DNA of 58,766 nt. Origin: Candidatus Uhrbacteria bacterium. GTDB lineage: Bacteria > Patescibacteriota > Patescibacteriia > 2-12-FULL-60-25. Below the pieces are notes generated by a model, which made no database searches, had not been told where the DNA came from, and saw nothing but the letters and a program-made list of their open reading frames with translations. The DNA lies in contig SICT01000001.1 of assembly GCA_009691315.1 (NCBI GenBank), positions 1 to 58,766 on the forward strand, read 5' to 3'. The stretch's first letter is position 1; every line of letters starts with the position of its first letter. Shown piece after piece: positions 17,261 through 42,987 of this stretch. A program made the translations under genes and the position numbers.

Positions 17261-19297
17261 TTAATGATCAAAATGCACGCGCTGACCAGGAGCAACGGTC
17301 TGCGTTAGATGAGATGGTGGTGGCTGAGGAGGTCGTGGCGGCGGAATGGGAGGAGGAGATATTGGTCGCGGGGCGAGAGCTGGCGCCTGATCACGCTTAC
17401 GACCGCGTTCAGGCTCACGTTTCCGCTCTGGTTTTGCCGAACCAGATCCAGTCTGCATTTTATTTTTTACTTGAGTCATTTCGGCTAAAAATTTTCCCGC
17501 ATCTCCTTTGACAATCCGGGGACGATTGAGTGGCGGCTCTACAGCAAGCATCGGCGCTTCTCCGGACTCCTGCTCACGGGGTGGTGGACTCTGTATGATC
17601 TGCTTAAATGTGACATCACGATTTTTTCGCTCTTCCATCACGAGCGGCCGACACTCGGCGCAATACATGGGACGACTTGGATCCAACTGCATCGGGAGAT
17701 TCCAAATTTTTCCACAGCGAGTGCATGTGTGCGGAAATTGTGGTTTGGTCTTTTTTCCTTGTGGTTGAGGCTTATTCGCGATAATTGCGGCCATGCGTTC
17801 CGGCTTGATCGTTAAATATTCTCCCGTGTCTTGCATCGCCGTTGGCCCTTCCAAAGAAATCTCTTGCTCTTCCTCTGTTTTAATGGCTGGATATTGGACA
17901 GCGAGATCGAGTTGAGGGAGAGGGGTCGTTTCTTGCTGGGATCCAGCCGGCATCAGAGACGATTCCGCATCGCTACTTGAGGCTGCTTCCATCCCGCTCC
18001 ATTTAAGAACTTTTTCTTCAATCAGAGCGCGTGGTTCCGCGTAGCGTTCACGACTAATCGCCACCACTTTTTCCATACTGCCCGTATGCTGCGCAATCGG
18101 CGGAAGAGCGGCCGCAGAAAAAGGCGAGGTTGCTACGCCATCCACCATGAGTTTCAGATACATCTGAAACTTTGTCATGTTCACCAAATCTTCCGGCGTG
18201 AATGTCGGCGCGAATTCCGTTTCCATGAATTCCGCATCCGCTCCTCCCACACGCATAACGATGATCGTCCCGACGTTTCCAAAAATAGCGGGCGCCACTT
18301 TTTCGTCCAACTGTTCGATATATTGATGTGCCACAATCAAATTGAGACGGTACTTACGCGCTTCAGATAAAATAGACGCAAAAGATTCATTCGCAAAATT
18401 TTGAAACTCATCAACAAATAAATAAAAATCACGACGCTCCAGCTCCAAAATATTCTGCCGCTCCTGCGCTGCTAACTGTATTTTTGTGATGAGCATGCCG
18501 CCGAGTAAACGCATATTATCTTCCCCGATGCGGCCTTTGGACAAGTTCACGATCAAAATTTTTCCATCATCCATGATACGTCGCGGATTAATGGTCGACT
18601 TCACCTGCGCGACCATATTGCGAATAACAGAAGAAGACAAAAATTGTCCGACTTTATTTTGTACCGGGGCGATGGCTTCGGTCGCATATTTTTCTGACCA
18701 CGAGGTGAACTCCGCCACCCAAAACGTTTTAACGATCGGATCACGAATCTTCGAAACGACACGCGAACGATATTCTTTGTCGACCAACAAACGATTGATG
18801 CCAAGGAGAGTTGCACCAGGATAATCAAGCAACGCCAGCACGCAATTCATCAAAATATATTCCATGCGCGCGCTCCACACATCTGGCCAGATTTTTTTAA
18901 ACACCCCCATGAGTCCGGACGCAATAAGCGGCTTCTGATCATCACTGTCTGTTTCTAAAATATTAAACCCGACCGGATAATCCATATCGGCTGGATTAAA
19001 ATACACCACATCATTCACCCGATTGGATGGAATAAAATCCAACAGTCTTTCTGCCGTATCGCCGTGTGGATCAATGTAGCAACACCCATGTCCCGCGTAG
19101 ATATCCGATAAAATCAAGTTTTCCATGAGCGTGGTCTTGCCCATGCCGGTTTTCCCAACGATGTACATGTGACGACGACGATCGTCTGTCTTGATACCAA
19201 AACGCCGCTGTTGATTACGAAAATTCGTCTCTGCAAAAAGCGTAATTTCGTGTTCGTGATCGTGATTATATTGGACAGGCATAAGGGGAAGGGGCAT
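17261..19297 (-). CDS. FtsK/HerA-superfamily P-loop ATPase, TraD/VirD4 coupling-protein-like, with a C-terminal zinc ribbon and a Pro-rich tail
   Basis: The Walker A motif is VGKTGMGKTT and the Walker B-like motif is FYLFVDEFQNF. The C-terminal CTRCGK...CAECRP is a C-x2-C...C-x2-C pattern. The start is uncertain: the track ORF begins with GTG at 19342, and ATGs occur at 19297 and 19282. Confidence 0.75.
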   Translation of the reverse strand: MPLPLMPVQYNHDHEHEITLFAETNFRNQQRRFGIKTDDRRRHMYIVGKTGMGKTTLMENLILSDIYAGHGCCYIDPHGDTAERLLDFIPSNRVNDVVYFNPADMDYPVGFNILETDSDDQKPLIASGLMGVFKKIWPDVWSARMEYILMNCVLALLDYPGATLLGINRLLVDKEYRSRVVSKIRDPIVKTFWVAEFTSWSEKYATEAIAPVQNKVGQFLSSSVIRNMVAQVKSTINPRRIMDDGKILIVNLSKGRIGEDNMRLLGGMLITKIQLAAQERQNILELERRDFYLFVDEFQNFANESFASILSEARKYRLNLIVAHQYIEQLDEKVAPAIFGNVGTIIVMRVGGADAEFMETEFAPTFTPEDLVNMTKFQMYLKLMVDGVATSPFSAAALPPIAQHTGSMEKVVAISRERYAEPRALIEEKVLKWSGMEAASSSDAESSLMPAGSQQETTPLPQLDLAVQYPAIKTEEEQEISLEGPTAMQDTGEYLTIKPERMAAIIANKPQPQGKKTKPQFPHTCTRCGKIWNLPMQLDPSRPMYCAECRPLVMEERKNRDVTFKQIIQSPPPREQESGEAPMLAVEPPLNRPRIVKGDAGKFLAEMTQVKNKMQTGSGSAKPERKREPERGRKRDQAPALAPRPISPPPIPPPRPPQPPPSHLTQTVAPGQRVHFDH

Positions 19298-19395
19298 TAC
19301 ACAATGAGCGAGCGGAGACCAGAGACTGTTTCGTGGACTCACCGTGCAAACGGGGATGTCCAGGAAATAGGCTCTGGTAGGCCGCGAGACAACAG

Positions 19396-22827: not shown

Positions 22828-23574
22828 CTACAGGTTTCGTGCGGCTGCCACGGCATTCTGGAAAATCTTGAGGCCGTGCGGCGGTTCCATCCACCGGCTG
22901 CGCCAGTTGGGATGTTGGAGGGGATCAACGAAACGTTCCGGATGGGGCATGAGCCCGAAAATCCGGCCCGATGGATCACACACGCCAGCAATGGCGTTTT
23001 CCGAACCATTGGGATTGTGTGGAGCGTAGCGAAGGGCTACGAGCTTGCGCTCTTCGATCTGCACAAGCGTTTCCGGTGAGGCAAAAAATCTGCCTTCACC
23101 GTGGGCGATTTGCAGAGAAATTTCGCTTTCCATCCCGCGCGTGAACACGCACGGACTTCCCTGCTCGACCACCATCCTGACCCACTCGCACTGGAAACGT
23201 CCGGAGACGTTGTGTGTGAGAGTCGCGGACATTTTGCCTAGTTCGCGAAACGGCAGGAGACCGGTCCGCACCAAGACTTGAAATCCGTTGCAGATGCCGA
23301 TGACGAGCTTACCCGCCTCAACAAAGGCACGGAGTTCGTCGGACAGAAACGTGGTGAGCTCGAGCGCCAGGATCTTGCCCGAAGCCACGTCATCGCCGTA
23401 GGAAAATCCGCCGGGAATGGCCAGAATTTGGAAATCTGCCAACCGAACGGATCGTGCACGCAATTGATTGATGTGCACAAGTCTGGGATTACCACCTGCT
23501 CGCATGAAGGCGTAAGCCGTCTCACGATCGCAGTTTGTGCCGTCGGTCTGCAGAATGCATACACGCGGGTTCAT
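22828..23574 (-). CDS. purQ: Phosphoribosylformylglycinamidine synthase, glutaminase subunit
   Basis: I trimmed the ORF to the ATG at 23574, which forms an ATGA overlap with the purL stop. The sequence contains MNPRVCILQTDGTNCDRE..., the nucleophile context ...GICNGFQ... and ...HGEGRF. Confidence 0.9.
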   Translation of the reverse strand: MNPRVCILQTDGTNCDRETAYAFMRAGGNPRLVHINQLRARSVRLADFQILAIPGGFSYGDDVASGKILALELTTFLSDELRAFVEAGKLVIGICNGFQVLVRTGLLPFRELGKMSATLTHNVSGRFQCEWVRMVVEQGSPCVFTRGMESEISLQIAHGEGRFFASPETLVQIEERKLVALRYAPHNPNGSENAIAGVCDPSGRIFGLMPHPERFVDPLQHPNWRSRWMEPPHGLKIFQNAVAAARNL

Positions 23575-26438
23575 GGGAACACCTCTCGCATGGGGTTTTT
23601 CCAGGCAGCTCGCAGATCCTCGAGCGTAATCTTGAAGCCGGAATAAGGACCAGTACGGCCAATGATGACCTGCTCTACCATGGTCTGACCAATCATGAAC
23701 CACGGTAGATCTCCCAAAAGTTTTTCCAGATCAACTCCAGGCGGAACCTCCACCAAGAAGCATCCTGGATTTTCACTAAAGAACACTGTCCGTGCTATCG
23801 GCCCATGACCCAGACGAGTCAGGTCGATATCTGCGCCGATGTTTCCACCAAAGCACATTTCTGCGAGCGTGACAGCAACGCCACCTTCGCTCACATCATG
23901 GCAAGCAAGAATTTCACCAGCCACAATCAACTCGTGCAGACGTCGAAAGATGCGTGGCAGGAGTTTGAGATCAACCTGCGGGACTGACGTGCCGAGCTGG
24001 CCATGTAGGTCGTAGAACACGGACCCACCAAAATCATAGCCATCCAGTTTGCCCAGAAGAATGATTTTCGAGCTTGGATATTTGAAATCCGTACTCATCG
24101 TCTTCGCGACATCTGGAATACGGCCGAACACCGAGATGCACAGCACCGGCGGAATGTCGATGACGGTTCCGTCTTTGCCGCGATAGGTGCTGGACAGGCT
24201 GTCCTTGCCTGAGACAAACGGCAGACCAAATGCATCAGCCGCCGCCACACAGGCATCAACCGCACGATCAAGCGCTCCAAGCCAGTGCTCTGTTGGCGCT
24301 GGCCAGATAAAGTTATCAATGAACGCAGCCTCACCCTTAACCGGATTGCCGCCGACGGCGACAAAATTCGCGAGAGCTTCTGTGATGGCCCAGAGTGTTC
24401 CGGCGTACGGATCGATCTGGTTGAGCACGGGATTGATTCCGTGCGACACCACCATGCCGTATGGCTTACCAGGGAGCAGGCGCAAGACGACCGCGTCATT
24501 GGGCGCGTCGCCCTTACACCCACCGTACGGAGGCAGGACATTGGTCCCTTGCACCCCGTGATCATAGCGGCGAACAATCGGCTCTCGCGAGCAGACATTC
24601 GGATGTGCCATCACACGCTTATACAAGGCACACCAGGAATCATTATCATTGTCACGAGGTACATTGATTACAATTGATTGGGCCAATGAAAACGGCTGCC
24701 ACTTGGCTGTGAGCGTCCGCTTGGGCATACCGTGGTGCAGGAATTCCATTTCCAGATCACACACGACAACACCATCGTAGAGCACAACCAGCCTATGCAA
24801 GTCAGTGAAAACGCCAAGCACTGTTGCTTCGACATTCAAACTCACACAGATTTCGAGGACAGCTGTCACATGTTCCGGCGCGACTGCAAGGACCATGCGC
24901 TCCTGTGATTCGCTCACCCAGATTTCCCAGGGATGCAAACCGCTGTACTTGAGCGGCGCACGATCGAGCCAAACCCGAACGCCCGTCTTCGCCCCCATCT
25001 CGCCAATGGCGGATGAGAAGCCGCCAGCCCCGCAATCTGTCACCGCTCGAATGAGACCAGCATCACGACAGGCGAGAAGTGCCTCCATGGTGCGTTTTTC
25101 CTCGATCGCGTGACCGATTTGCACGGCGTTTGCGTTGACTGAGGCGGTGCGATCGGTCATGGCCGCAGACGAAAATGTCGCGCCATGAATTCCATCGCGA
25201 CCGGTTTTGCCACCAAGCACGATGATCTTGTCACCGACTCTGGGCTCACCTTTTTCCACGCACGTCTCTGGCATGATGCCGTAGGCGCCGACAATTACAC
25301 TCGGCTTGGCGCGGAATCCTTCGTGAAAATGGAACGACCCGTTGGCCGTCGGAACGCCCATGCGATTGCCATAATCCCCAACCCCGCGCACCACTTCGCG
25401 CAGAATATGGCCGGGATGCAGACAACCGGGCGGGACCAATTCGGATTTCAAATCCCACGGCCCGAGACAAAACATGTCGGTGGACAACACAACACGTGCG
25501 CCCAAACCCGTACCCATGATGTCGCGGAACACCCCACCACTACCGGTTGCGGCTCCGCCATAGGGCGCGGTTGCGCTCGGACTGTTATGCGTCTCGACTT
25601 TTCCGCAGATGGCTTGTCCATCATAAAACGGAATGACGCCGGCATTGTCGTGGAACATGGAGAGGACGCCCGACGCATGACGCCTGGACGCGCCCTTCAA
25701 CCGTTCCATGAGCGAGGGCTTGGGACAACCGTCAACGATGAGCTCTGCATTGAACGTCTTGTGACTGCAATGCTCACTCCAAGTTTGGGCCAGCGTCTCG
25801 AGTTCGACATCCGTCGGATCTCGATTCAAGTCTGTGAACGCCGATTGAACAGCTTGCATTTCTTCGAGCGACAGAAACAGCTTGTCGCGCGACAGAGCCA
25901 TGAGCGCTTCGTCACTCATCCCGCCAAGCGGAATGGTTGTGACAGAACCGCGTACTCCTTCGATCAGGAGTGTGGTCGGCTCATTTTTCACCACCTGCGA
26001 AACCGTGGGGTTGACCAGCAGTCGAGCAACGATCTCATCGATCTGTGCCCGACTCACCTGCTGACCATAGAACGTATATTCTGTGCTCACGTCCACGGCC
26101 TTGAGATTGGTCAACCTGAAATCACTTGCCACTTTCATGAGAGACGCCGCCGCAGGGTTCATCACCCCCGGCTTGTACGCCACTTCAACGGTGCGCTGAC
26201 CCTCCATCAAAAGCGGCGCATTGAGCGACCACGTCTGATCGATCGATTCGACAAGCACCCGCAAGGCGAACTGTTCCGCCTGCTCGGAGCCAAGTCCTTC
26301 CATTTCCAACCGATAGACGGTCACGACCCGAACAGCCGTGAGCATCAGGATCCCGAGCGCGTTCTCGATGGTTCGATGCAACGCCCGTCCCGCACTGTCG
26401 TGTGCGGGAATACTCGCTACGCGAATGGTATAAATCAT
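23571..26438 (-). CDS. purL: Phosphoribosylformylglycinamidine synthase II with two N-terminal PurS-like modules (PurS-PurS-PurL fusion)
   Basis: I trimmed the ORF to the ATG at 26438, which is preceded by aaggagg. ...LAQTWSEHCSHKTF... is the PurL signature. The first ~180 aa contain two PurS-like units (IRVASIP...LVESID and VEVAYKPGVMNPAAASL...ARLLVNPTVSQ). Confidence 0.9.
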   Translation of the reverse strand: MIYTIRVASIPAHDSAGRALHRTIENALGILMLTAVRVVTVYRLEMEGLGSEQAEQFALRVLVESIDQTWSLNAPLLMEGQRTVEVAYKPGVMNPAAASLMKVASDFRLTNLKAVDVSTEYTFYGQQVSRAQIDEIVARLLVNPTVSQVVKNEPTTLLIEGVRGSVTTIPLGGMSDEALMALSRDKLFLSLEEMQAVQSAFTDLNRDPTDVELETLAQTWSEHCSHKTFNAELIVDGCPKPSLMERLKGASRRHASGVLSMFHDNAGVIPFYDGQAICGKVETHNSPSATAPYGGAATGSGGVFRDIMGTGLGARVVLSTDMFCLGPWDLKSELVPPGCLHPGHILREVVRGVGDYGNRMGVPTANGSFHFHEGFRAKPSVIVGAYGIMPETCVEKGEPRVGDKIIVLGGKTGRDGIHGATFSSAAMTDRTASVNANAVQIGHAIEEKRTMEALLACRDAGLIRAVTDCGAGGFSSAIGEMGAKTGVRVWLDRAPLKYSGLHPWEIWVSESQERMVLAVAPEHVTAVLEICVSLNVEATVLGVFTDLHRLVVLYDGVVVCDLEMEFLHHGMPKRTLTAKWQPFSLAQSIVINVPRDNDNDSWCALYKRVMAHPNVCSREPIVRRYDHGVQGTNVLPPYGGCKGDAPNDAVVLRLLPGKPYGMVVSHGINPVLNQIDPYAGTLWAITEALANFVAVGGNPVKGEAAFIDNFIWPAPTEHWLGALDRAVDACVAAADAFGLPFVSGKDSLSSTYRGKDGTVIDIPPVLCISVFGRIPDVAKTMSTDFKYPSSKIILLGKLDGYDFGGSVFYDLHGQLGTSVPQVDLKLLPRIFRRLHELIVAGEILACHDVSEGGVAVTLAEMCFGGNIGADIDLTRLGHGPIARTVFFSENPGCFLVEVPPGVDLEKLLGDLPWFMIGQTMVEQVIIGRTGPYSGFKITLEDLRAAWKNPMREVFP

Positions 26439-26476
26439 CTCTCGGCCTCCTTGGCACAAGTGTCTGGTTTCGAAGA

Positions 26477-26673
26477 ACACCGTTCGAATATCGAACGGTG
26501 TCCGGAGCCTAACCTGTTTCTATTTTTGTGGCAATTTGATTCTTTGGGCTCAGATTCCTCCTCTTTTGGAAAGAGGAGGTGAGGAGGAGTTAAAAACAAA
26601 AGGGTTATGTGGTACCAGGTACCAATAATCTCCGGTTTTTAACTCCCTCGATCCCTCTTTCCACAAAGAGGGA
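26477..26673. repeat. Cluster of four strong hairpins in the secF-purL spacer
   Basis: H1 is acaccgttcga-ata-tcgaacggtgt (26477-26501). H2 is cctcctcttt-tgg-aaagaggagg (26557-26579). H3 is ggagttaaaaac-N37-gtttttaactcc (26586-26646), with ggtaccaggtacc in its loop. H4 is tccctcttt-ccac-aaagaggga (26652-26673). H2 and H4 share the CCTCTTT/AAAGAGG stem. Confidence 0.8.
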
Positions 26674-26680
26674 GGTCTGA

Positions 26681-27577
26681 TTAAGGTTTCCGACTCCAAC
26701 GGTCCCAACTCACCAAAAGGGGTGAGGCGATAAAAATGGAGGAGTAAGTTCCCGTGGCAATGCCGATGATCAGGGTCAGCGTAAAGTCACGCAGAGATTC
26801 ACCACCAAAAAAATGAATGGCGAACAAAACAAGCAAAGTTGTGATAGACGTGCTGAACGAACGAAAAAATGTTTGACGGACAGATGCGGCGACAATATCT
26901 TCAAACGAACCAGAAAGTTTTTGCAAATTTTCTCGAATACGATCCATCACCACGATCGTGTCAGTAATCGAATAGCCAAGAATGGTGAGAATGGCGGCGA
27001 CGAATGGCGTGCCAATTTCGATTCCGTAAAAATGTCCCAGAAAAGCAAACACCCCAATCGGTACGATCACATCGTGAAAGGCGGTGAAGATCGTCACCAA
27101 ACCATACTTCCAAGATTTGACCGGCACAGAAACTTTGCGAAAAACATACGCCACATAAAGCGCGATGGCGACTAATACAATCACCAATCCGCGAATGGCT
27201 TTTTGACGTAACTCCTCCCCAATCACCGGTCCGATGGCATCAAAACGCAATTCAACCGCATCTGCATATTTTTTCTTCAATGCCTGAATCAGGGTCTGAT
27301 GTTCTTCCTCTGTCATGTGACGCAAACGAAATTGCATCTCCTGCTCACCCACCGGTTGGATGACAATAGATCCAAGATTCACATGCGCCGTATCAAAGAC
27401 TTGCTGAACTTCGGTTGGTGTGGGACGCGTATTGTATTTAACAGCGAGAAGCGATCCTCCCGTAAAATCAATCCCCTGTTTCAACCCCCAGATCGCCAAA
27501 AAAAGAATGGACAATCCAATCATCGTTCCAGACAAAATGTACCAAACGGGACGCAATGTGATGACATTCATTTTCAT
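26681..27577 (-). CDS. secF: Protein translocase subunit SecF
   Basis: The 298-aa product has the typical start ...GIDFTGGSLL... and six-TM RND-like topology. It lies directly after secD. Confidence 0.92.
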   Translation of the reverse strand: MKMNVITLRPVWYILSGTMIGLSILFLAIWGLKQGIDFTGGSLLAVKYNTRPTPTEVQQVFDTAHVNLGSIVIQPVGEQEMQFRLRHMTEEEHQTLIQALKKKYADAVELRFDAIGPVIGEELRQKAIRGLVIVLVAIALYVAYVFRKVSVPVKSWKYGLVTIFTAFHDVIVPIGVFAFLGHFYGIEIGTPFVAAILTILGYSITDTIVVMDRIRENLQKLSGSFEDIVAASVRQTFFRSFSTSITTLLVLFAIHFFGGESLRDFTLTLIIGIATGTYSSIFIASPLLVSWDRWSRKP

Positions 27578-27580
27578 ACG

Positions 27581-29626
27581 TTATTCTTGTTTGTTGCGCG
27601 GTTTAAGAAATAACCAACCATTTTTCGCGATGGGTGTACCCGCCAAAAATCGCAAGATCGTCCGACTGGATACAACGGCCGTAAAAAGAGAGATGAGCGT
27701 ACCAATGGCGAGCGTGAGCGCGAATCCCTTAATCATGGATGAGGAGAACCAATACAACACGGCACACGAAATCAAAACCGTCGCGTGTCCGTCTCGAATC
27801 GATAACCAAGCACGTTTAAACGCATCTTCAAGTGCCAGCGTAAGTCCTTTCCCTTCCATCCATTCCTCTTTCAACCGTTCAAACACAAGCACATTCGCAT
27901 CAACCGCAATGCCCAATGACAGAATAAATCCTGCAATGCCAGAAAGGCTCAAGGTTACGGGAATCATTTTGAACACCGCGGCAGAAACGGCCGCATACAA
28001 AAGAAGTGCAACAATCGAGACAACCCCTGGCAAACGATAGAGCGCGATCATGTACAAGGCGACCAGCAAAAATCCGATCAGTCCAGCTTTCAAAGATTTT
28101 TGCAAAGAATCTGCGCCAAGCGTTGGTCCGACGGTTTGTTGGGCAATCAATTTAATCGCGACCGGAAGCGCACCGGCCTGCAAACGCTGAGCAAGAAGTT
28201 TCGCTTCATTCAAATTAAAACTTCCAGTAATCACCGCTTGCCCGCCCAAAATTTCATTCTGTACGGTTGGGACGGAAATCGGCTGACCATCCAAAAAGAT
28301 GGCGACCGATTTGCCCACATTGCGTTTGGTGATGTCCGCGAATAGTTTTCCGCCTTCGCTATTAAATTGAAGAGCGATCTGGATCGCACCCGTGCGCTGA
28401 TCAAACTCGACACGCGCTGACTGCAATTGTTTTCCGGTCAGAGCTGTTGCTTTCCAAGGATCAACCGGCGGCGCAAGATCTTCTGGTGTCAATTTTTTGA
28501 TTTCAATCAAACGCACATGAACGTCCTTCACAGGTCGTTCCTCCAACTTCCAAATAATGTGAAAACCAAATGGTGTTTCCACGACATCAGAAATAGTCCC
28601 GACTTTCTGAACAAATACCACTTTCTCGAATTCATCCACCATATCTCCTTTCCCAAACCAACTCAGATCACCTTTTGATTCGACCGCTCCAGGCTCCTGG
28701 GAATTTTCTGCAACCAATTTATCAAAATTCGCCTGGGTGATTTGCGCCTTTATCTTATCAATCTTGGCTCGCGCTTCCTCTTTCGTATAAGTCGAAAGAT
28801 CACCACGTGCACCTTTATAACTGATCAGTACATGTTTGGCATGAATTTGGGTTCCTGCATCTTTTACCTCTTCCACTTTCGCGATCGTTAAATAATGTGG
28901 ACGCTCAATCGGCAATGGCAAAACCGTTCCCGCTGGCAAATCTTTGGCTTTAGAATAAATATCGCTGACTTCAGATTTATCCTTAATAAAACCCAAATCA
29001 CCACCAGACTCTTTTAACGCAGGATTTTCCGTTTTTTCTTTGGCCAGCGCAGCAAAGTCTGTACCTGGTTTTTTTGCCTGCATCAAAATTTGATCAACGC
29101 GTTTGTTCGCATCCACATTTGTCTGATCCATCTCCTTTTTCTGTTCTTCGGTCAACACCGGCGTTTTCTGATCATTCTGTTCTTTAAATTCCAAAATTGG
29201 CGTTTCCCCAATCAACTTAATTGCTTGATTGATATCGCGGATACCGGCCAGTTCGACCGTCACGCGCCAGGCATTGCCCGCTTGAGTCGTTTGAATGAGC
29301 GGTTCAGAAACGCCAAGCGTATTCACACGACGCTCAATCACATCACGCACCCCATCAAGTGCACTTTTACGATCCGCATCCGCTTGCTTGGAAACATCTG
29401 CCTCATATTCCAAGTGCGTACCACCTTGAAGATCAAGCCCAAGCACAAATGGTTTCTGAATTTGACCCAAGTTGATCCCAATAAGACTTTTTGCTTGAGC
29501 AAGCAGCCAATTCGCTGGAGCCGGATAGGACAAAGAACCCGTCACAATAAACAAAACGAGAAGCCACAGAATGCGGTTACGAATGGTTCGCTTAGATTGA
29601 ATGGGGTTTCTTTTCAGAGGAGGCAT
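27581..29626 (-). CDS. secD: Protein translocase subunit SecD carrying an inserted tandem parvulin-like region
   Basis: LGLDLQGGTHLEYE..., ...RRVNTLGVSEPLIQ... and ...VAIFLDGQPISVPTVQNEILGGQAVITGSF...LAQRLQAGALP plus the C-terminal TM bundle identify SecD. It is 681 aa because of an insert at aa ~150-385. Confidence 0.93.
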   Translation of the reverse strand: MPPLKRNPIQSKRTIRNRILWLLVLFIVTGSLSYPAPANWLLAQAKSLIGINLGQIQKPFVLGLDLQGGTHLEYEADVSKQADADRKSALDGVRDVIERRVNTLGVSEPLIQTTQAGNAWRVTVELAGIRDINQAIKLIGETPILEFKEQNDQKTPVLTEEQKKEMDQTNVDANKRVDQILMQAKKPGTDFAALAKEKTENPALKESGGDLGFIKDKSEVSDIYSKAKDLPAGTVLPLPIERPHYLTIAKVEEVKDAGTQIHAKHVLISYKGARGDLSTYTKEEARAKIDKIKAQITQANFDKLVAENSQEPGAVESKGDLSWFGKGDMVDEFEKVVFVQKVGTISDVVETPFGFHIIWKLEERPVKDVHVRLIEIKKLTPEDLAPPVDPWKATALTGKQLQSARVEFDQRTGAIQIALQFNSEGGKLFADITKRNVGKSVAIFLDGQPISVPTVQNEILGGQAVITGSFNLNEAKLLAQRLQAGALPVAIKLIAQQTVGPTLGADSLQKSLKAGLIGFLLVALYMIALYRLPGVVSIVALLLYAAVSAAVFKMIPVTLSLSGIAGFILSLGIAVDANVLVFERLKEEWMEGKGLTLALEDAFKRAWLSIRDGHATVLISCAVLYWFSSSMIKGFALTLAIGTLISLFTAVVSSRTILRFLAGTPIAKNGWLFLKPRNKQE
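28538..28852 (-). other. Parvulin-type (PpiC/rotamase) PPIase module embedded in the SecD periplasmic domain
   Basis: IHAKHVLISYKG...ANFDKLVAENSQEPGAVESKGDLSWFGKGDMVDEFEKVVF...GTISDVVETPFGFHIIWKLE is collinear with the E. coli PpiC pattern (HILV...ADFGKLAKKHS.CPS...GGDLG.F..G.MV..FD.VVF......P..T.FGYHIIKV). A degenerate second copy lies just upstream (aa ~175-252). Confidence 0.85.
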
Positions 29627-29638
29627 ACGGGTCCAAAA

Positions 29639-30421
29639 TTAGTTTGAAACGATGGGATTGAGTTTGGGCGGCATCTTACGCATTAACCACCATTGTTGCA
29701 ACCAAGTAAGCACACTCATCACAAACCAGTAAAGGGTGAGCCCGCCAGGCAAAGAAAACCCGATCACTGCCGTCATGATGGGCATGATATAGGCCATCTG
29801 CTTATTCATCATGGTGGCCATACTTTCGTCTTTGGCGCCTGTCGTTCCTGCGACTTCCGCGGGCGGAGAGGTAATGGTCGCGGCCGGTGGTTTTAAAATC
29901 TGTTTGGTTTGGAAAAATTGGACGATGGCCGCAGCAATAGCCAACACCGGACTTGCCTTAGCCAGATTGATCAAACCAAATAGCGTTGGATCAATGTGTG
30001 AGGGATGTGGAATAAATCCGTACAACAACCCTTCAAAACTACTTGAGCCCAATCCAATGATCAACGCGCGATACAATGCCAAGAGTACAGGCAGTTGAAT
30101 CAACAGCGGCAAACAGGAAGAGGCTGGATTAACCTTTTCTTTCGCATACAACGCCATGAGCTCACGCGCCTGCTCTTCTTTTTGATCTTTCTCTTTTAAA
30201 CGTTTCCGAATCTCATCAATTTTTGGTTGGAGTTCCTGCAACGCGCGCTGTTGCTTGATCTGTGCGACGGTAAACGGATAGAGAACAAATTTGATGATGA
30301 TGGTCAGCAAAATAATGGCAATACCAATATCCTGACCCGGCACCACGCTATACAACCAAATCAAAACATTCAAAATTGGTTGAACAAATATGAACGTAAA
30401 CCAATGGGAAATAAAGGACAT
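29639..30421 (-). CDS. yidC: Membrane protein insertase YidC (short, Gram-positive/Oxa1-like form)
   Basis: The 260-aa product starts ...FIFVQPILNVLIWLY.... A coiled basic loop (RKRLKEKDQKEEQAREL...YAKEKVNP) lies between TM1 and TM2, and PLLIQLPVLLALY is present. Confidence 0.88.
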   Translation of the reverse strand: MSFISHWFTFIFVQPILNVLIWLYSVVPGQDIGIAIILLTIIIKFVLYPFTVAQIKQQRALQELQPKIDEIRKRLKEKDQKEEQARELMALYAKEKVNPASSCLPLLIQLPVLLALYRALIIGLGSSSFEGLLYGFIPHPSHIDPTLFGLINLAKASPVLAIAAAIVQFFQTKQILKPPAATITSPPAEVAGTTGAKDESMATMMNKQMAYIMPIMTAVIGFSLPGGLTLYWFVMSVLTWLQQWWLMRKMPPKLNPIVSN

Positions 30422-30429
30422 ACCAAGCG

Positions 30430-31722
30430 TTAGGCCTTAGGCGTTAAGTTCTCGACTTCAGACTCAGACACTGATCCTTCTTCTGACGGAACAACCGGGG
30501 CCACAAATTCTCCCTTCTCTGAATCTGCGACCGCTTCCCCACCTTCTTTGACGATCGTGATACGCCAGCCAGTCAGTTTTGCCGCGAGCCTAACATTCTG
30601 ACCGCCTTTACCAATGGCAAGCGATAGCTGATCCGGAGCGACGTGTGCATGCGCAAGATGCTCTGCCTCATCTAAATGTACTTTGATAACTGGTGCCGGC
30701 TTGAGCGCTTCTTGAATAAATCTTGCTGGATTATCACTCCATTCAATCACATCAACTTTTTCCCCACCGAGCTCACGATTAATCATTTGGATACGCGTTC
30801 CGCGCTGACCAATACATGAACCGATCGGATCAATCGCAGGATCGTTCGTTGTCACGGCGATCTTGGTGCGTGAACCAGCTTCGCGCTCAATCGCTTTAAT
30901 TTCCACAACCCCATTTGCAATTTCGGGAATCTCCTGCGTGAACAAACCAACAACTAATTGAGGACTGGTTCGTGACAAACGAATTTCCGGACCTTTGGTC
31001 GTCATGACCACTTCACGCAAAATCACTTTCATACGCTTACCCCGATCATAACGTTCAAATTCAATCTGATCTTCTGGAACCATGATCCCAGAAGTTCGAC
31101 CGAAATCAATAATCACCAAACGCCCTTCACGACGCTGAACCGTGACATTCATGAGCTCACCTTCACGACCCTTGAAATCACTAAAGATCACCTCACGCTC
31201 TGCCTCACGAATTTTTTGCAAGATAATTTGTTTAGCTGTTTGTGCAGCCATGCGACCAAATGCCGCTGGCACCGTGAGTTCCACGCGAATTTCTTCCGCG
31301 AGCGCGGCGTCCGCTTTAATATCACGCGCGTCAGACAACATAATCATGGTCTTCGGTTTGAACTTAAATTCATCCTCAACAACCACTCCATCGACAGGCG
31401 CTTGCTCAGACACGATGGTTACGCGCGACGGCCGTCCGTCTTCCCGTTTCTTTGTCGCATACGATGCTTCAAACCGCTCAAAATAATCTTCCGGCAATTC
31501 CATATCCTCAACCACTTCTTTCACATCAAATACGCGGATCCCGCCAGTTTGCCCATCATATTTTTCCGAATCAAACTCCACGCGAATATTCTGATTCTTA
31601 TTGCCAAAATCTTTTCGAAACGCCGCGGCAAGCGCACTCTCAACCGTCTCGAGTACGGATTCATAAGAAATATTCTTCTCTTCAGCGATTTGTTTCATCG
31701 CTTGGGTGATGGGTGAAGCCAT
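30430..31722 (-). CDS. nusA: Transcription termination/antitermination factor NusA
   Basis: I trimmed the ORF to the ATG at 31722. It has the N-terminal domain, an S1 domain and two KH domains (IGQRGTRIQ and IGKGGQNVRLA). Confidence 0.92.
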   Translation of the reverse strand: MASPITQAMKQIAEEKNISYESVLETVESALAAAFRKDFGNKNQNIRVEFDSEKYDGQTGGIRVFDVKEVVEDMELPEDYFERFEASYATKKREDGRPSRVTIVSEQAPVDGVVVEDEFKFKPKTMIMLSDARDIKADAALAEEIRVELTVPAAFGRMAAQTAKQIILQKIREAEREVIFSDFKGREGELMNVTVQRREGRLVIIDFGRTSGIMVPEDQIEFERYDRGKRMKVILREVVMTTKGPEIRLSRTSPQLVVGLFTQEIPEIANGVVEIKAIEREAGSRTKIAVTTNDPAIDPIGSCIGQRGTRIQMINRELGGEKVDVIEWSDNPARFIQEALKPAPVIKVHLDEAEHLAHAHVAPDQLSLAIGKGGQNVRLAAKLTGWRITIVKEGGEAVADSEKGEFVAPVVPSEEGSVSESEVENLTPKA

Positions 31723-31783
31723 AGGTAGGAATATAAAAAGGGTAAAATAAGACCCGTCCTTCCAGAACGAGTCAATGGGCAAT

Positions 31784-31812
31784 AGGATAGGGGAAAAGGA
31801 AAAGCCTGTCAA
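31784..31812 (-). promoter_or_regulatory. Sigma-70-like promoter for the nusA operon
   Basis: The minus strand reads TTGACA-N17-TATCCT. Confidence 0.45.
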
Positions 31813-31832
31813 ATCTGCACTCACATATATTG

Positions 31833-31893: not shown

Positions 31894-31922
31894 TTGACCT
31901 TTGTTTGACTATTTGCTTAACT
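31894..31922 (+). promoter_or_regulatory. Sigma-70-like promoter for the Met/Cys-rich lipoprotein gene
   Basis: The signal is TTGACC-N17-TTAACT. It is followed by a ~110-nt leader with several short hairpins. Confidence 0.4.
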
Positions 31923-32035
31923 CTGTCTTCCGGAGTAATCTGGAGTTAAGCGAAGCGGGATCAATGTGGTCCCGCCTCGATGCACCTCGAGAAAAAATCC
32001 GACCTGCGACAGCGGGCGGTAGAAAGGGACTGAAA

Positions 32036-32680
32036 ATGATGATCCGAAACGTCTCTCTCCTCTGCCTCGCGCTCGCCGCAGGTTCGGCCTGCAGCGCCCC
32101 GGACATGATGCCCCCACCCGGAATGATGGGTGACGGGCCGGACATGGCCAAGGTCGTTCCTCCGGGATCCGACCTCGCCGGCATGATGATGACCGGCGGC
32201 GACATGGTGATGAACGCCAATGCCTGTGCTTCTTGCGTCATGGGTCAGACCATGCTGAAGGATTGCATGGACATGATCAGTTACTGCATGGACAAGGCTA
32301 CGGACACGAACCAGTGCCCCAAGACCTGTTCATGCGGTTTCGACCTCCCAGGCGGGGAGTGTCCCATGGGCAAGCCATTCAACTGGACCATGCAAGTCGT
32401 GGGCCAGACCTGGTCGTGCGATGGTCAGCCTGCGTTCGAACCCAAACAGTTGAGCCAGGATGGCGAGCCACTACGCGTGGACTTCCACATGGGCGGTGAT
32501 ACTAATCACGCGACTTGTGTGGGAGACTCATGCTGGTACCGAGCATCATATTCCCCACTTCTTAAGGTGGCGCGTGTTCGATTCACGAGTGCAACTTCGG
32601 CCGTGATCGAATCGTGGCCCAAAGGCTGGGACGTTTCGACGAAACCTGGAGGTATCGTCGGTAATTGTACGCAGTTCTAA
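32036..32680 (+). CDS. Met- and Cys-rich lipoprotein (putative metal-binding)
   Basis: I trimmed the ORF to the ATG-ATG at 32036, which is preceded by aaaggga. MMIRNVSLLCLALAAGSAC has a lipobox. It is followed by MMPPPGMMGDGPDM...AGMMMTGGDMVM and many Cys. The gene is GC-rich. Confidence 0.65.
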   Translation: MMIRNVSLLCLALAAGSACSAPDMMPPPGMMGDGPDMAKVVPPGSDLAGMMMTGGDMVMNANACASCVMGQTMLKDCMDMISYCMDKATDTNQCPKTCSCGFDLPGGECPMGKPFNWTMQVVGQTWSCDGQPAFEPKQLSQDGEPLRVDFHMGGDTNHATCVGDSCWYRASYSPLLKVARVRFTSATSAVIESWPKGWDVSTKPGGIVGNCTQF

Positions 32681-32751: not shown

Positions 32752-35700
32752 CTAACCTATTGTTTCTGCACAAATATCATTAAAGATTACACAACCCACG
32801 GGACAATGAGGTGCTGAATACTCCTTACAATTTCTGAGTCCACAGTATGGATTGTTAACATCAGTATTAACACAACCAATGGGACAATTAGGTTTTTTGT
32901 ACGCACTGCAATTAGGTCCTGGTTGAGGTGTTTTGGACTTAAGATTCTCATCTTCCTGTGTTTGCAATTCACCACTTGAACGTAGTTGCAATGATCCTGG
33001 ATACACGATCCAAGGACGATAGTTCTGCGTATATCCACTATTCAAACTCTGAAAATCTGGATTTGTTGAATTGCATTCGTTATTCAATAGCCTACCGAAT
33101 GTTGCCCGCACCTCGTTAGTAGATTTAATTGTACCTTCTCGTATTCCATCAGCTAGTCCCCAAGAATAACAGCCACCATATGGATGTAAAACTTCATTAT
33201 CAGATCCATCATCCTGTAACTGATTATCTTTAATCTTGGTCCGACACTCTCCTGAACACCAGCCCCAATTATCTTGCAGCATAACGCGCGGAGTAAAGCG
33301 GCATGCATTTACTTTTTTATCCCAACAACCACGGTTTGGAGCCAATCCCGTTGGAATACAGATGTCCCCTGCTGCACAACGGAGTGGGATATTGCCTATT
33401 TCCTGTTGCGGTGTTGTACAACCGCGATTCGGATCTCGGGAACAACGTCCTTCCAAAAATTTCTTCGGTTCTTGCTGTTGATTCACAGGCCACTCAAATT
33501 CGCACGCGGGCAGATCGCCCGTGCCGCCGCAATAGTATTGGTGGCTGAATTCGAAATAATTGGGCTGGCAAGCCTCACCACTATTACCGAAGAACGTACG
33601 GTATATACATTGATCTTTAGCTTTGCCAATCGTGCAATCAGAGTCAGAATGACAAGTTTTGTATTGTTTTTTGGAACAGGTGCCGAGCGGCGCACAACGA
33701 CCCGCACCAGCGGGACAATCAACATCCGTATTGCAGGTGATTCCCCATCCGCGGATCGGATCATCACACTCGCTCTGAGTTGCGCAGAATGGTTTATGAT
33801 TTTTCAAGCTTGCATCAGCAATTTTTTGCTGAAACCCATCCCCCCAATCAACGGTCACGTTCTTGAGCGGCATCTGCTCATGACTGGCCCAACCATAAAA
33901 CTTGAGAGAGGCTTTATGCTGACCGCCAGCAGCATTCACAGCACCATCGGATTGACCATCAAAAGAGAACATATCTAAGCGTTGAATGGAGCATTGGCCA
34001 GGCGTGTCACACTTGCGGGCATCAGGTGCCGCAATCCGTGGTGGATGAGGGGTGTAGTAGGCAATGGTGTCAGTGAATTGCTGAATCCGAGGAACATCTG
34101 CTGGAATAGGATCATAGCCTAAAAATTGAGGGGTGTAGTGCCCAGGTGTGACATTGGTCGGAGGAAGGTTATCCGAAAGGAACGGATCCAAACCTTCTTG
34201 TTTGCCGTTTATGTTCTTCGTAAAATTATAAACTGTTAATCCGCACGATTCATCGCTTGGATCCGGACATTGTTTTATATCGGGTTGATATTCGGTTCCG
34301 GTCCATTGATATATGCGATAAATTTTGGCGAACAGATTTGTCAGATAGTGCCAAGATCTGCCATAAGGAGGGACATTGAGCTCAACGAATCCTTTTGGAT
34401 CATTTGGATCAGGCACTTTACAGCACGTTTCTTTTCGAAAGAAACTCCCGATTCCGGCACCCAAGAAAGTTGGTGGCTTCAGGGAAGAGAATCCAGCCAC
34501 ATTCCCACCGCTTTGGAACAACGGATCTGTTCCAGCCGGTCCGGTATTTAACGCGCTCGAAAATGGGGCGAAACGAGAACCATATTGAAATCCAACACCG
34601 GGAGCCGTAAAATTTCCGTTCTTCCACACACGATCGGTAAAAGCGGCATTTTGACGAGAGTCACGACTGATGACTTCCGCGAGTTGCGTACAAATACTCC
34701 CATAATTAACCTTGATATTCATATAGATATATCTCATATCATTTGCCTGACCTCCACAGGTCGAGACCCAAAATCCCTGTAAACTCCACGGGCCATTGAC
34801 AGCTTTAGACTGAAACACCCCCCGAATGGAAAAGTAAGGTTTATCACTGGTACATTTTTCCGTATAAGCAGTTGATCGAATATGACTTAATTGACGTTTG
34901 ACACTGCTGGCATCAGGCGGATCAAACGGTTTCAGCGAATCTTTAAAGAGAGAAATGAAGTTTGTTTGCCCGCTACTCCGATAATCCGTTTGCCAAGTCT
35001 TCATAAAGCACTTGCCTGGCTCATTCACACAATCCACTTCCAAAGGTTGCCCTTGAGATCCTTTGAACAGGGTATCAGCTCCTCGACCCAGAATAGGCTT
35101 ATAGTTCTCAAAAAATTTCTGTCGCCATTCCACATCCTTGGCCTTGGTGCTATCCCCTTCATTATAATCTACCTCCCCTAAGCCATCGACCCAGTCCGCT
35201 TGATATCCGCAGGCTAAACGGCCCATATCATTTGGATTTTCGATCGGGGAAATGCTGATATAGGCCAGGCTCTTATCTTTATTGTCCCCACCATTGAATT
35301 CTAGTATTGGTTTCTCCAATTGAAAAAATGTTTCGGTATAACTTTGATCTGGACTACTTCCAGCATCAACCAAACGTACAGCCGAAAGATCACGGTCATT
35401 GTCTCCCTCATCTTGATCATCATCTGCCAACTCACACTGCTCGGCGTTTGGACTGAATTCAGGACGATCCCCCACGAGCGAAGCACCTGGATATCCCCCA
35501 ACGGCCGAGTCTCTGCCATTTGATGTGAAATTATCATCGTAATTGAATTTGAACATACTCCCAGCATAATTAGAGTCTGGCTTACCTTCATTCTGCTTTT
35601 TTTCATCATGTTCACCAACAAAATCCACATCCGTTAAAGAACGCGCGCTCGGTGGATCAGCTTTTGATAAACAGTAGTACTGGCCTGAATTTTCTGGCGG

Positions 35701-38700
35701 GAAATAGCCGGCCGTCGGCACATAATGATAGGGATCTTTTTCCCCAAACAAAATTGGCGTTGGATTCCACGTTAAGCATGGGTGCTGAGTCACATCATCT
35801 CCAGTAATGCGTGTCATGTCGCGCTCCAAACATTGTCCAAAAATTCCGTTGACTATTTGCGATTTACGGAAAGCCACGCATCTCCCGCCTTGTTCCGGTG
35901 GTCCGCAGGTTTGAGAGGCATTAGACCCTTCAATCGCCAATTTCTGTGGATTTTTTGGATCTGTCTGCGGTATTTTAAATATCGCTTCCGGCAAACACGA
36001 CTGTCCGGCGCGCGGTCCGCCCGCGCACACCCCGGGCAAAACATGTGAAGAAAACACATCGTAAAACTTGATGATACCGGCATCTGGATATTCCACACGT
36101 TTATAACTGCAAGCACAATCTTCACCGTATTCACAGATGTTGGCTCCGGTAAAACTGGTTAACCGTTGTTTCGGTTGAGCAGGATTTTTGGACGTATCCC
36201 AATCAATCGCATACGAAGAAGGGAATGGAGCATCCGCTTCCGGATAAGCTCGACACTCCGCACTCGGAAATGCCTGACTCAAAGCCTGATCATGGGTTGG
36301 ATTAGGCTGAGCAAATTTTAAAGTCACATTCTGAAAATCTAAGCCAGTGTCTTTGGCATTGACCGCCACATAGCAAAGGAATGAACGGCCTGAACTTAAG
36401 GCTTGCAAGTATTCATTCAAACGATAATACCCAATTCTCCCAGTGCCAACATGCTTACACAAAAACAGTTGAGGATTCGCTTTAGACAACGGGTCTTCTT
36501 TATCGAGCTTGATTGCTTCATAGCTCTTGGGACTTGGGTTCAAAAGGAATTTATTTGGATTCTGAGGATCCACGATTACTGGGATGACAATAGCAGCGGC
36601 CAAACGATAATCCAAGGCAAACCGATATTTGTTATTTGCTACATTCCCTGCCCCATCCGCACCAGGTTTCGCCGTGGTCAGGTCCGGCACCTGAAATGAA
36701 TTCGGGATGGTGTAACCAGAATAATCATTTTCCCCCAAACCGATCCTCCGACTCGCGTATTGGTTGACGTCAAAGAATGCGCCGCGGGTCAGCGTTGGTT
36801 CCGTACTCGTCGTCGCACGATTCACATAATGTGCGCAGAAAATATCACCGTTCTCATGGCTCGCCTGATCGCATAACGCCAAATTCGTACAAATATCTTT
36901 ATATTTATTGCTGCTGCGATCAAACACTGTTTCGGCACTCTTACACCCCAACCACTGCGAACAATCACGATCCACGTTTACTTTAATCAACAAATTGGCA
37001 TCATTTTCTCTCGTTCCTCCAGGCTTACTGCACGATCCTGTAAAATCGTGGGTATGAGTCAATAAAACCGGGTTAATAATCTCTTTATCAACAATCTTAT
37101 AATTACATTCCGCATCCCGTTCACACACATTGCCTTCCCATGGATTGATCTTTGTATCCACAACCCCCAGAAAATTGGTCGTGACAATCGTTTCCTGTCC
37201 CTGACACTTCTTGGCTTGACAATTTGCATCCTTTGATCCCAAACAACTCACAGGCGTGGTGGGCGTAAACAATTGATCGCGATATTTTGCATAACTGGCA
37301 GACACGTTGTAACTCAATTGCGTATCACTCAAATTATTCAACAAGATACAGCCCTTCCCAACATCTACACTCCCATTACACGTGGCGGTATCAAATTTCT
37401 GCGGATCATAAATAAAGAAGTATGGCTTACCGGTTTTATGTGATGGATCTGATACATCATTTGGATCGCGCAATTCCGAACACTCCCCTTGATCCTGCGG
37501 ACACAACCCTCCCCATCCCTGATATTCCGTGTCACCTGTGCGCAGAAGATTAAACGTCTGACCGTTTTCCAAGACCAGCGGATAACACGGAAGCGTTGTC
37601 CCCTTCTCAAACCAACCAGAATAGGTACCGACCGCTAAATTTTTAATCCCTGAATTATCTCCGGTTAATGGAACATTCTCTTTATATTCACAGGTGTGAT
37701 TTCCTGGATCGCGGAAATATTCTTTTCCTCCGGTCGCCGGATTAAATTCCTGACAAAAAAGTTCAGATGGCCGGCACAAACCCTGATCGTATTTCGTAAT
37801 GTCATCTTTATAATAAACCGTGGCGAACGTGGATGTCGCATCCAAACTCAAACGATTTTGGGTATATTTTGGTTTTCCAAACGCCCGGCACGAGGCATTT
37901 TCTGGTTGACAATGTTTGCTCGGATCATCAATCAAATACAAATAGCGATCGGCCGAACGGGTGGTTGTTGCGCCACCAAATCCTGGAATCACTGGTTTGT
38001 CTTCCATAACGAATGTTTGTTCACCCGTGTCAGCTGAATTCCGCGTATCAATAAATCCAGTACAGCTGATCGCCTGTTGACGACACAAGCGCGAGAACTG
38101 ACGAATGTCTACTTTTTGCCCATCGCGCCGCTTGTATTCGCGACAACCTAGCATGGCTTGCGGTTGAGGGACTCCGCCTAATCCGGTATCACACTCATTC
38201 GGTGTCTTCCAAGTATTGGCTCGCACATAGGCCATATCCGGAATAAGAGTCACCGTTACTTCATCCAGATAAACAAGAGGCGTCGCAGCACTCCAAACGA
38301 GCGCGGTTAGCTTACTCCCACTCCAACCATTAAACGGACCCACCGAATATCTCTGCCAATCCGGTGTCAGATTCACCGTACCGACCACGGTCTTTTTTCC
38401 TAAATCTTTTGGATCTGCTGTTGATACGAACAATGGAACAGAGCTGGTCGCGGCTGGTCCTTTGGCCCAAAAGGTCACGCGGAATAAGTCGGTCGGAGTT
38501 GAAGTGACAGATACGCTCGCCTGTACAATCTTGTCTTGCGGCTTATTTTTTGCTGGGATCCGCAACGACGAATCACCGACTAAAAGTGATTCACTTGATT
38601 TTTCTCCACCGACAAACGCCCCAATCCCATCTCGAAAATTTTGTGCCAAGACCGTTTGCATGTTACCAGACTCTGCTCCCGCATAAGCGCGACAAGAAAT

Positions 38701-42147: not shown

Positions 42148-42918
42148 TTATTCATCTGAATCTAAATTTGGCAAAGGTCCTGGAATATTTCCCACTTGAT
42201 TTAATATTTGACTCGAACCAGCTGCCGCTCTAATTTTCAATGCTTCCTGATAGGCCGCATTATACACCTGTTCCACCTGAATATCCGAAAGTCCATCTAA
42301 TGTATCCTTGGCAACAAGATTGTTAGAGACTAAATATTCACGAATTTGAGTAGGAGTGAGACTGGTTGGTTCAGGCGGAGCCTGTAAAAACGTTTTCACG
42401 CCAATCGCTCCTGTCCCACTCTGCCCAATCTCCGCATCCGCCTGTGGAACGGGGAGTTGTGCTACATCCAAAAACTCACTAAAAGAAGAGGAGGCGTTCG
42501 CCTGAGGCAGTTGATTAAACGCCTGAAAACAGGTTTTTCCCTGTGGACAATTCGGATCAGAATTTTGTGCGACTTCGACCGTATCTGGAACGCCGTCCGA
42601 ATCACTATCCCCTATATAAGGTGAGGTGTGGTAAACGTATGACTCATCATAATCTGACAACCCATCATGATCTGTATCTTTTTGTTTTGAATCATTCAAT
42701 TGATTTGCTTGTGTTTGTTGTTCTGTAAAAAATTGTTGGGCGAGTTTTGACTTTTGATTCGGAACAAGAAATGGACTCCGAACCTGTCCGCTTACTTGAA
42801 ACAATGCGAGCGAAAAAGCAACCAGCCCGCAGAAACTTAAAATTCCCCCAGCCAATCTCTGCTCGGTTGATAGATGTAACCACCAGGCCCTCACGCCAGA
42901 CGGTTCTTGCTCCTCCAT
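42148..42918 (-). CDS. Membrane-anchored protein with thrombospondin-type-3-like Ca-binding repeats
   Basis: I trimmed the ORF to the ATG at 42918. It has one TM helix (LAGGILSFCGLVAFSLALF) followed by DTDHDGLSDYDE and DSDSDGVPDTVE. It ends 6 nt before the giant gene. Confidence 0.7.
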   Translation of the reverse strand: MEEQEPSGVRAWWLHLSTEQRLAGGILSFCGLVAFSLALFQVSGQVRSPFLVPNQKSKLAQQFFTEQQTQANQLNDSKQKDTDHDGLSDYDESYVYHTSPYIGDSDSDGVPDTVEVAQNSDPNCPQGKTCFQAFNQLPQANASSSFSEFLDVAQLPVPQADAEIGQSGTGAIGVKTFLQAPPEPTSLTPTQIREYLVSNNLVAKDTLDGLSDIQVEQVYNAAYQEALKIRAAAGSSQILNQVGNIPGPLPNLDSDE

Positions 42919-42987
42919 AGCATAAAAAAAGTATAGCACATGCGTTCTTGTCTATCTAGAAAAAATACTCTATTCTACCCACAACCT

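Follow-up and report, generated by a model that had tools for sequence, protein, structure and literature searches.

How polypeptide chains that leave SecYEG are passed to folding helpers beyond the membrane, where energy is scarce, is debated, as is the role of the mobile P1 head of SecDF. In model organisms, PrsA, PpiD and SurA are separate proteins whose short-lived contacts with the translocon are difficult to capture. A 58,766-nucleotide stretch of Candidatus Uhrbacteria DNA (contig SICT01000001.1 of assembly GCA_009691315.1; hereafter the window) raises the question of whether such a helper can be part of the secretion motor itself. Its secD gene, a 681-codon open reading frame (ORF) plus stop codon on the minus strand (27581..29626), encodes a protein with the layout TM1 (first transmembrane helix), P1 domain with a double-parvulin insert, and TM2-6. 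The host belongs to the candidate phyla radiation (CPR)/Patescibacteria, which are uncultivated small-genome episymbionts relying on exported surface proteins. We propose, with a probability of roughly 0.7, that the insert is a translocon-coupled foldase/chaperone that would act on chains as SecDF pulls them out, by analogy with the parvulins known to work at the translocon.

The first point to settle was whether the protein is a SecD at all. Comparison with Pfam returned Sec_GG (amino acids (aa) 57-77, E 4.7e-6), SecD_1st (aa 92-151, E 2.2e-15), SecDF_P1_head (aa 392-489, E 4.4e-32, profile positions 17-114 of 114) and SecD_SecF_C (aa 491-661, E 5.4e-13), all above the Pfam gathering thresholds, together with Rotamase_3 in two stretches (E 1.4e-35, best 248-359). 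This combination of SecD domains and two Rotamase matches is the one expected by the original prediction, which had been made from the DNA letters without database searches. The NCBIfam model for SecD, TIGR01129, scored 370 bits for a cutoff of 244.4. By sequence, the protein matched the structure of Thermus SecDF (3AQP, E 3.7e-78), and Foldseek searches with the full-length AlphaFold model gave the SecDF structures 5YHF, 5XAN and 3AQP as top matches (E 1e-17 to 1e-21), while a model of P1 only matched the isolated Thermus P1 domain (3AQO, E 2e-14).

The order of the elements along the chain is that of a SecD. TM1 (aa 19-40, 29507..29572; all features of the protein lie on the minus strand) follows a Lys/Arg-rich N-terminus, and AlphaFold places helices at aa 12-33 and 505-662 with the P1 elements in between. 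The N-terminal part of the P1 base, made of Sec_GG and SecD_1st (aa 57-151, 29174..29458, corresponding to residues 34-123 of 3AQP), ends with LIGETPILEFKE. The P1 head subdomain (aa 392-490, 28157..28453) is intact according to both the Pfam and the 3AQO matches, and is followed by the end of the P1 base and TM2-6 (aa 491-665, 27632..28156), delimited by SecD_SecF_C, the 3AQP alignment and invariant residues. Among the latter, D576 and N578 belong to a GIAVDANV motif that pairs with GAAVDGNV of Thermus SecDF (3AQP); the Thermus residue aligned to D576 is D340, which we take to be the membrane-embedded Asp of the proton path. Since the Lys/Arg-rich N-terminus precedes TM1, the positive-inside rule places P1 and the parvulins outside the membrane. 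Every defining feature tested was present and the protein is thus, as judged from its sequence, a genuine and functional SecD, predicted to serve export driven by the proton-motive force (PMF).

Where the insert sits was determined from the alignment with 3AQP, in which query residues 61-155 correspond to chain residues 34-123 and query residues 375-665 to chain residues 146-429. About 220 residues (aa ~156-378) hence take the place of ~22 in the connector of Thermus SecDF. The connector of E. coli SecD is also ~20 aa long, from SecD_1st (227-285) to P1_head (306-431). The SecD proteins of Thermus (3AQP, 5YHF), Deinococcus (5XAM) and E. coli share with ours the succession TM1-P1-TM2-6, the Sec_GG, SecD_1st, P1 head and SecD_SecF_C domains, the transmembrane Asp/Asn (D576 and N578 here) and a neighbouring secF, but the stretch from base to head reaches ~240 aa here and contains two parvulins, against ~20 aa in Thermus and E. 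coli. The insert is located in this short connector between P1 base and head, i.e. the hinge, outside the head subdomain itself. The original prediction had announced an insert of ~235 residues at 28472-29179 (aa 150-385 of the ORF), in the periplasmic head; the span was right and lies within the P1 domain, but the position is the hinge between base and head rather than the head. Whether the parvulins replace or decorate P1 had been left as a point to check: they decorate it, and base, head, TM2-6 and the transmembrane Asp are all kept. The idea that the connector is a general insertion hot spot was rejected, the extra residues of E. coli SecD being N-terminal of SecD_1st.

The two halves of the insert were then scanned separately against Pfam, with a Rotamase_3 cutoff of 22.5 bits. 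Residues 150-257 alone matched Rotamase_3 with E 2.1e-9 (38.4 bits), over profile positions 27-113 only, and residues 257-395 alone with E 1.5e-25 (90.5 bits); given these separate E-values, both halves are parvulins well beyond chance. Module 1 (aa 156-256, 28859..29161) is degenerate. It opens with a 26-residue helix (aa 160-185 in the AlphaFold models), has neither a β1 strand nor the pair of catalytic His, the β1 His being absent and position 244 varying between N, H, R and Q. Module 2 (aa 258-364, 28535..28855) is a complete PpiC-type peptidyl-prolyl isomerase (PPIase) domain with the tetrad H265, D320, T351 and H356; these positions and those of the proline pocket were mapped from what we take to be the equivalent His/Cys(Asp)/Thr/His network of Pin1/Par14. 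The parvulin motifs quoted for the second half in the original prediction are correct.

Conservation differs sharply between the modules. Among 61 homologues, H265 and H356 are each found in all 61, position 320 holds D in 46 sequences and E in 8, and position 351 holds T in 44 and S in 17; the pocket residues M329 and F333 are kept in 47 and 57, respectively. The two His remain unchanged in 15 representatives taken from far more divergent clusters. Mean pairwise identity rises from 0.37 in module 1 to 0.55 in module 2 and 0.69-0.75 in the SecD core. This pattern of substitution shows that the catalytic residues of module 2 are under purifying selection. In Foldseek comparisons, module 2 superimposes on the PPIase domain of S. 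aureus PrsA and on SurA P2 with TM-scores of 0.82-0.84 and root-mean-square deviations of 2.0-3.0 Å, and on the Pin1 catalytic domain with TM-scores of 0.75-0.77. Module 2 is, by these residues, a complete parvulin with a conserved catalytic tetrad, and PPIase activity is predicted for it.

The fold of the insert was examined in two independent AlphaFold runs, one of the full-length protein with 61 sequences and one of P1 only with 16 sequences. Both gave the same secondary structure with a predicted local distance difference test (pLDDT) of ~90-95 for the insert and ~90 in module 1. DSSP assigned two long continuous strands in both models: in 245-268, the final strand of module 1 is continuous with the opening strand of module 2, and 354-377 starts as the last strand of module 2 (β4) and continues beyond it. 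The extension is a tail strand (aa 365-378, 28493..28534) with the sequence PVKDVHVRLIEIKK, to which both the DSSP assignment and covariation point. Covariation was computed as mutual information with average product correction over 185 non-redundant fused SecDs, yielding 26,565 pairs within the insert. The top pair of the 26,565 was 252-372 (z 6.0), and pairs 257-366, 258-365 and 247-373 were among the top 40. The covarying ribbon pairs fall in one register (i+j ~620-624) that continues the β1/β4 register of module 2, and module 1 positions 200 and 169 also covary with 376 and 379.

The simplest reading of the models and of the covariation is that the two strands, of 24 residues each, form a single antiparallel ribbon common to both parvulins. 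Residues 365-377 probably take the position of β1 in module 1, where they would pair with its β4 and close the sheet, because a parvulin sheet without its central β1 strand is implausible. Such a closure would bring the start and end of the insert close together, as insertion into a short loop requires. The first half of the insert had been described as a degenerate parvulin without the first His-bearing strand; this holds for the module taken alone, which aligns to profile positions 27-113, but its sheet is probably completed by the strand that follows module 2. When aa 364-380 were prepended to module 1 and scored on a module-2 hidden Markov model, the result did not exceed those of 20 shuffled controls (28.6-33.7 bits throughout). 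The models and the covariation together suggest a fairly rigid arm at the P1 hinge. The topology of the insert would be that of an out-of-register excerpt from a parvulin array of at least three repeats, and among the best 150 of 20,455 parvulin-containing proteins in a representative library, the closest stand-alone relatives are proteins with two or three tandem parvulins. One triple-parvulin relative, P0125, has a gene context that does not look CPR-like, with GGDEF and Ser/Thr kinase-TPR genes.

The architecture is not restricted to this contig. All 120 homologues listed (59-72% identity, 643-699 aa, on contigs of up to 988 kb) contain the Rotamase and SecD domain set; their named sources are the Patescibacteria group and Candidatus Uhrbacteria, and the proteins are called simply 'SecD'. 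A search with the insert only among 1.84 billion cluster representatives returned the 20,455 parvulin-containing proteins mentioned above, of which the best 150 were inspected; ~20 of these are SecD fusions, each from a distinct cluster at 50% identity. A scan of GTDB species representatives gave 80 loci among the matches listed, and at least 22 of them encode a SecD with both parvulins, in the same order and at the same position. The record titles of these 22 loci include Uhrbacteria, Magasanikbacteria, Falkowbacteria, the Parcubacteria group and Peribacteria, and their GC content lies between 0.35 and 0.66. In 18 of the 22, the ORF immediately after secD is a separate SecF-like one; secD and secF are fused in two (L009 and L019), one locus (L008) ends at the contig end and one (L011) has no separate SecF match. 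The fusion is thus conserved across many Patescibacteria/CPR lineages, with secF adjacent.

Several records deserve a comment. Eight of the fusion loci (L002, L003, L005, L008, L010, L016, L021 and L025) are titled 'uncultured Gammaproteobacteria' or 'Candidatus Binatia', and two of them, L002 and L005, have an unusually high GC content (0.63-0.66); we suspect that these metagenome-assembled genomes are mislabelled or placeholder-labelled bins. The single-chain SecDF fusions (L009:9425-12514, L019:1517-4654 and P0206) are 1015-1046 aa long, carry the same double-parvulin insert, occur in Magasanikbacteria and Peribacteria, and would be convenient structure targets. A 776-aa protein from a JGI metagenome (P0177) is a SecD with a ~350-aa insert, in which extra helical/degenerate material precedes the active parvulin and a long additional segment follows it, suggesting that the module evolves modularly. 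The other 58 of the 80 listed loci, whose titles name other phyla, encode parvulin proteins without a SecD domain. Many Bacteroidota-type loci show a conserved gene pair, which encodes a protein of 640-800 aa with two tandem parvulins and, no more than ~1 kb after it, a parvulin protein of ~430-490 aa with one or two matches to the domain (L024, L027, L029, L030, L034, L038, L042, L049, L073, L074 and L077; also L023, L033 and partly L052). By size alone, the members of this pair look PpiD-like and SurA-like.

What would two parvulins do at this position? SecDF reportedly uses the PMF to swing the P1 head, which is said to bind and pull the emerging chain, as seen in the structures of Tsukazaki and Furukawa. 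In the proposed foldase, a chain leaving SecYEG would be captured and pulled by the swinging P1 head and bound by the attached parvulin arm. Module 2 would catalyse prolyl cis/trans isomerisation and module 1 may serve as a scaffold or holdase, like P1 of SurA, so that folding help would be available at the exit site in a fixed 1:1 stoichiometry with the motor. The fused module might then do the job of separate PrsA-, PpiD- or SurA-type proteins in these small-genome monoderm bacteria. A bolder extension, which we put forward as speculation that is rather doubtful as a whole, is that the two parvulins move in mechanical coupling with the proton-driven swing of the P1 head, each stroke handing the chain to an active PPIase (an energy-coupled foldase); that stand-alone PrsA, SurA and PpiD types have been replaced in a large part of the CPR; that contact of tandem parvulins with the P1 head, as proposed for SurA in E. 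coli, is a general and ancient functional interaction, the fusion being its 'Rosetta stone'; and that module 1 acquired its topology by out-of-register capture from an array of at least three repeats.

The foldase proposal draws on a comparison with parvulins that work at the translocon, of which the SecD fusion would be a covalent version. Among these, SurA (1M5Y) shares the domain order: as in the insert, its parvulins are in tandem, the first inactive and the second active, and it is the best solved-structure sequence match for module 2. The NCBIfam SurA model NF008038 aligns aa 167-367 to profile positions 188-387, colinear over both parvulins. The score is 54.8 bits for a cutoff of 394, the match covers the two parvulins only, and a SurA_N-type Pfam match is absent at E ≤ 0.01. 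Unlike SurA, the insert is membrane-bound within SecD, and its module 1 lacks a first strand of its own. To our knowledge, monoderm CPR bacteria also have no outer-membrane protein pathway, unlike the hosts of SurA. E. coli SurA was found to bind the holo-translocon, and AlphaFold puts its two parvulin domains on the P1 head of SecDF, a contact that rests on low-resolution electron microscopy and AlphaFold models (PMC9987972).

PrsA (4WO7, 6VJ4, 2JZV) is likewise an extracytoplasmic, membrane-tethered parvulin foldase of monoderm bacteria at the exit of the Sec channel. Its model NF002827 is the best NCBIfam parvulin match (E 2.6e-17) and module 2 reaches a TM-score of 0.82 with the PPIase domain of S. 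aureus PrsA. PrsA is, however, a separate dimeric lipoprotein with one parvulin inserted in an N/C chaperone domain, while the SecD fusion has no N/C domain, carries two parvulins and uses SecD itself as the tether. Scores with the PrsA models are 57-63 bits for cutoffs of 343-361, over aa ~280-370 only; no lipobox is present and the domain is internal to SecD.

PpiD, a protein of ~620 aa that we take to combine an N-terminal transmembrane anchor with an inactive parvulin and a chaperone domain like that of SurA, is also a membrane-anchored parvulin-containing chaperone at the translocon exit. In contrast to the fusion, it is a separate protein whose parvulin is catalytically inactive; the Foldseek TM-score to the PpiD-YfgM structure 8ZHT is weak (~0.13-0.14) and the PpiD model NF008054 scores 49.8 bits for a cutoff of 493. 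PpiD-YfgM associates with SecYEG (PMC9643414).

In Mycoplasma pneumoniae, a PrsA-like dome made of Mdp436, Mdp444 and Mdp489 covers SecYEG-SecDF, and a single module keeps the catalytic residues in this likewise genome-reduced monoderm (10.1101/2025.04.25.650208). The dome consists of three separate large lipoproteins that form a chamber, whereas here the foldase is inserted as a domain into SecD and nothing indicates a chamber. By analogy, the parvulin-bearing SecD may work like SurA, PrsA and PpiD, but it falls outside those families because their chaperone core is absent. The resemblance to SurA, PrsA or PpiD noted in the original prediction is accordingly accurate for the order of the two parvulins, which is colinear with SurA P1-P2, and does not extend to the N/C chaperone core or to family membership.

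A family of ~282-aa proteins (P0182, L084:3947-4807; P0203, L087:4156-5001; and P0241) combines an N-terminal transmembrane anchor, a SecDF P1 head (aa 56-140, Pfam E 1.8e-16) and a catalytic-type parvulin (aa 171-280). In L084-L086, the gene directly follows one for a Trypsin_2 serine protease. This is a second and different covalent association of P1 head and parvulin, and the functional link between the two is therefore strengthened.

A number of points weigh against a catalytic foldase coupled to the translocon. A few divergent members have Y, N or S in place of the tetrad Asp. PPIase activity and substrate contact are both predictions from conserved residues. The geometry between arm and head is poorly defined, the predicted TM-score (pTM) of the full-length model being 0.40 and that of P1 alone 0.56. 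Neither the window nor any of the 22 related secD loci (5.9-20.8 kb, most ~20 kb) contains a second parvulin, which is weak evidence on stand-alone parvulins. The parvulin of PpiD and P1 of SurA are inactive and yet useful, and catalysis may not be the function under selection. Taken with the clearly non-catalytic state of module 1, some of these points would suit an insert that is only a chaperone or holdase, or a structural arm that lengthens the reach of P1 across the wall zone, with PPIase activity absent or irrelevant; chaperoning by SurA, PrsA and PpiD is indeed largely separable from their PPIase activity (see also PMC9643414). We nevertheless consider such an insert unlikely. Both catalytic His are kept without exception in the 61 close homologues and the 15 divergent ones. 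T/S351, F333 and M329 are conserved as well, and module 2 has changed far less than module 1, whereas a pure scaffold would be expected to drift as module 1 did.

The undefined geometry (pTM 0.40-0.56), together with the order yidC-secD-secF in the window, which suggests tight co-function, could also fit an arm that binds a fixed partner (YidC, SecY, the cell wall, an S-layer or pilus machinery) and so positions or regulates SecDF. A docking role of this kind is quite improbable in our view, as no specific partner suggests itself, conservation falls on the proline-binding/catalytic pocket rather than on a novel surface, and the known translocon parvulins act on substrates (PMC9987972; 10.1101/2025.04.25.650208). 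An artefact, whether a chimeric assembly or a gene call that joined a SecD gene to a parvulin gene, can be practically dismissed. The reading frame is unbroken with SecD segments on both sides of the insert, and composition shows no break across it, apart from a slightly lower GC content in the soluble domain. Three antisense ORFs on the plus strand (27420-28040, 28427-28678 and 29090-29647) have no Pfam match and were treated as shadows of the secD frame. The same architecture recurs in more than 120 homologues and at least 22 species-representative genomes from independent studies, which disposes of the chimera that had been named as the outcome fatal to the prediction. A translocon-coupled foldase/chaperone is the reading that we retain as most likely.

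Full-text literature searches found no description of a SecD-parvulin fusion, in line with the original prediction, which knew of none; domain-architecture databases, which were not queried, may list it. One paper on giant genes of Omnitrophota contains the terms SecD, peptidyl-prolyl and rotamase, in unrelated contexts. As far as the searchable literature shows, the fusion is thus clean, conserved and apparently undescribed, although both of its building modules are well known. Databases name these proteins only 'SecD', which makes the feature invisible in annotation. A natural fusion at the P1 hinge brings independent evolutionary support for a functional link between parvulins and SecDF, and provides a stoichiometric single-chain object for cryo-electron microscopy and for PPIase, chaperone and secretion assays. 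It also points to a lineage-specific extracytoplasmic proteostasis in CPR/Patescibacteria.

In the window, secD belongs to a tight run of minus-strand genes, namely nusA, yidC, secD and secF. The partner subunit SecF (298 aa, 26681..27577; Pfam SecD_SecF_C, E 4.1e-52) starts 3 nt past the secD stop codon. Upstream, yidC (260 aa, 29639..30421; Pfam 60KD_IMP, E 1.4e-49) encodes a protein of the short monoderm type and ends 12 nt before secD, on the same strand, and the two genes are probably in the same operon. Further upstream, nusA (30430..31824; Pfam NusA_N and KH_5) provides context only. The 119-position profile of the NusA N-terminal domain is stretched across aa 39-211, implying an insertion of ~55 aa, and the listed GTG start puts ~38 residues ahead of the domain, so that the real start may be further downstream.

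GC content, 0.42-0.50 in the nusA-yidC-secD-secF block, steps up to 0.58-0.62 on both sides, at 31900-32680 and 23571-26480. The latter interval is a purL-like FGAM synthase gene, overlapped by an antisense ORF (25185-26582, plus strand) that looks spurious. A 259-aa ORF at 31901-32680 (plus strand) is Cys/Met-rich with a signal-like N-terminus and has no Pfam match. About 3 kb from the sec operon, a giant ORF of 3129 aa (32752-42141, minus strand) has a sub-threshold CBM_4_9 match only, and the 263-aa ORF upstream of it (42148-42939, minus strand) a sub-threshold match to bacterial TSP3 repeats; both products are probably large surface or secreted proteins. ARAGORN, run over the whole 58.7-kb window, detected neither tRNA nor tmRNA genes. 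On the other side of secD, the ORF at 17261-19342 (minus strand) encodes a 693-aa type IV coupling protein resembling TrwB/VirD4 (TrwB_AAD_bind, E 3e-11; TraG-D_C), possibly a sign that this small genome has a system of the conjugative or competence type.

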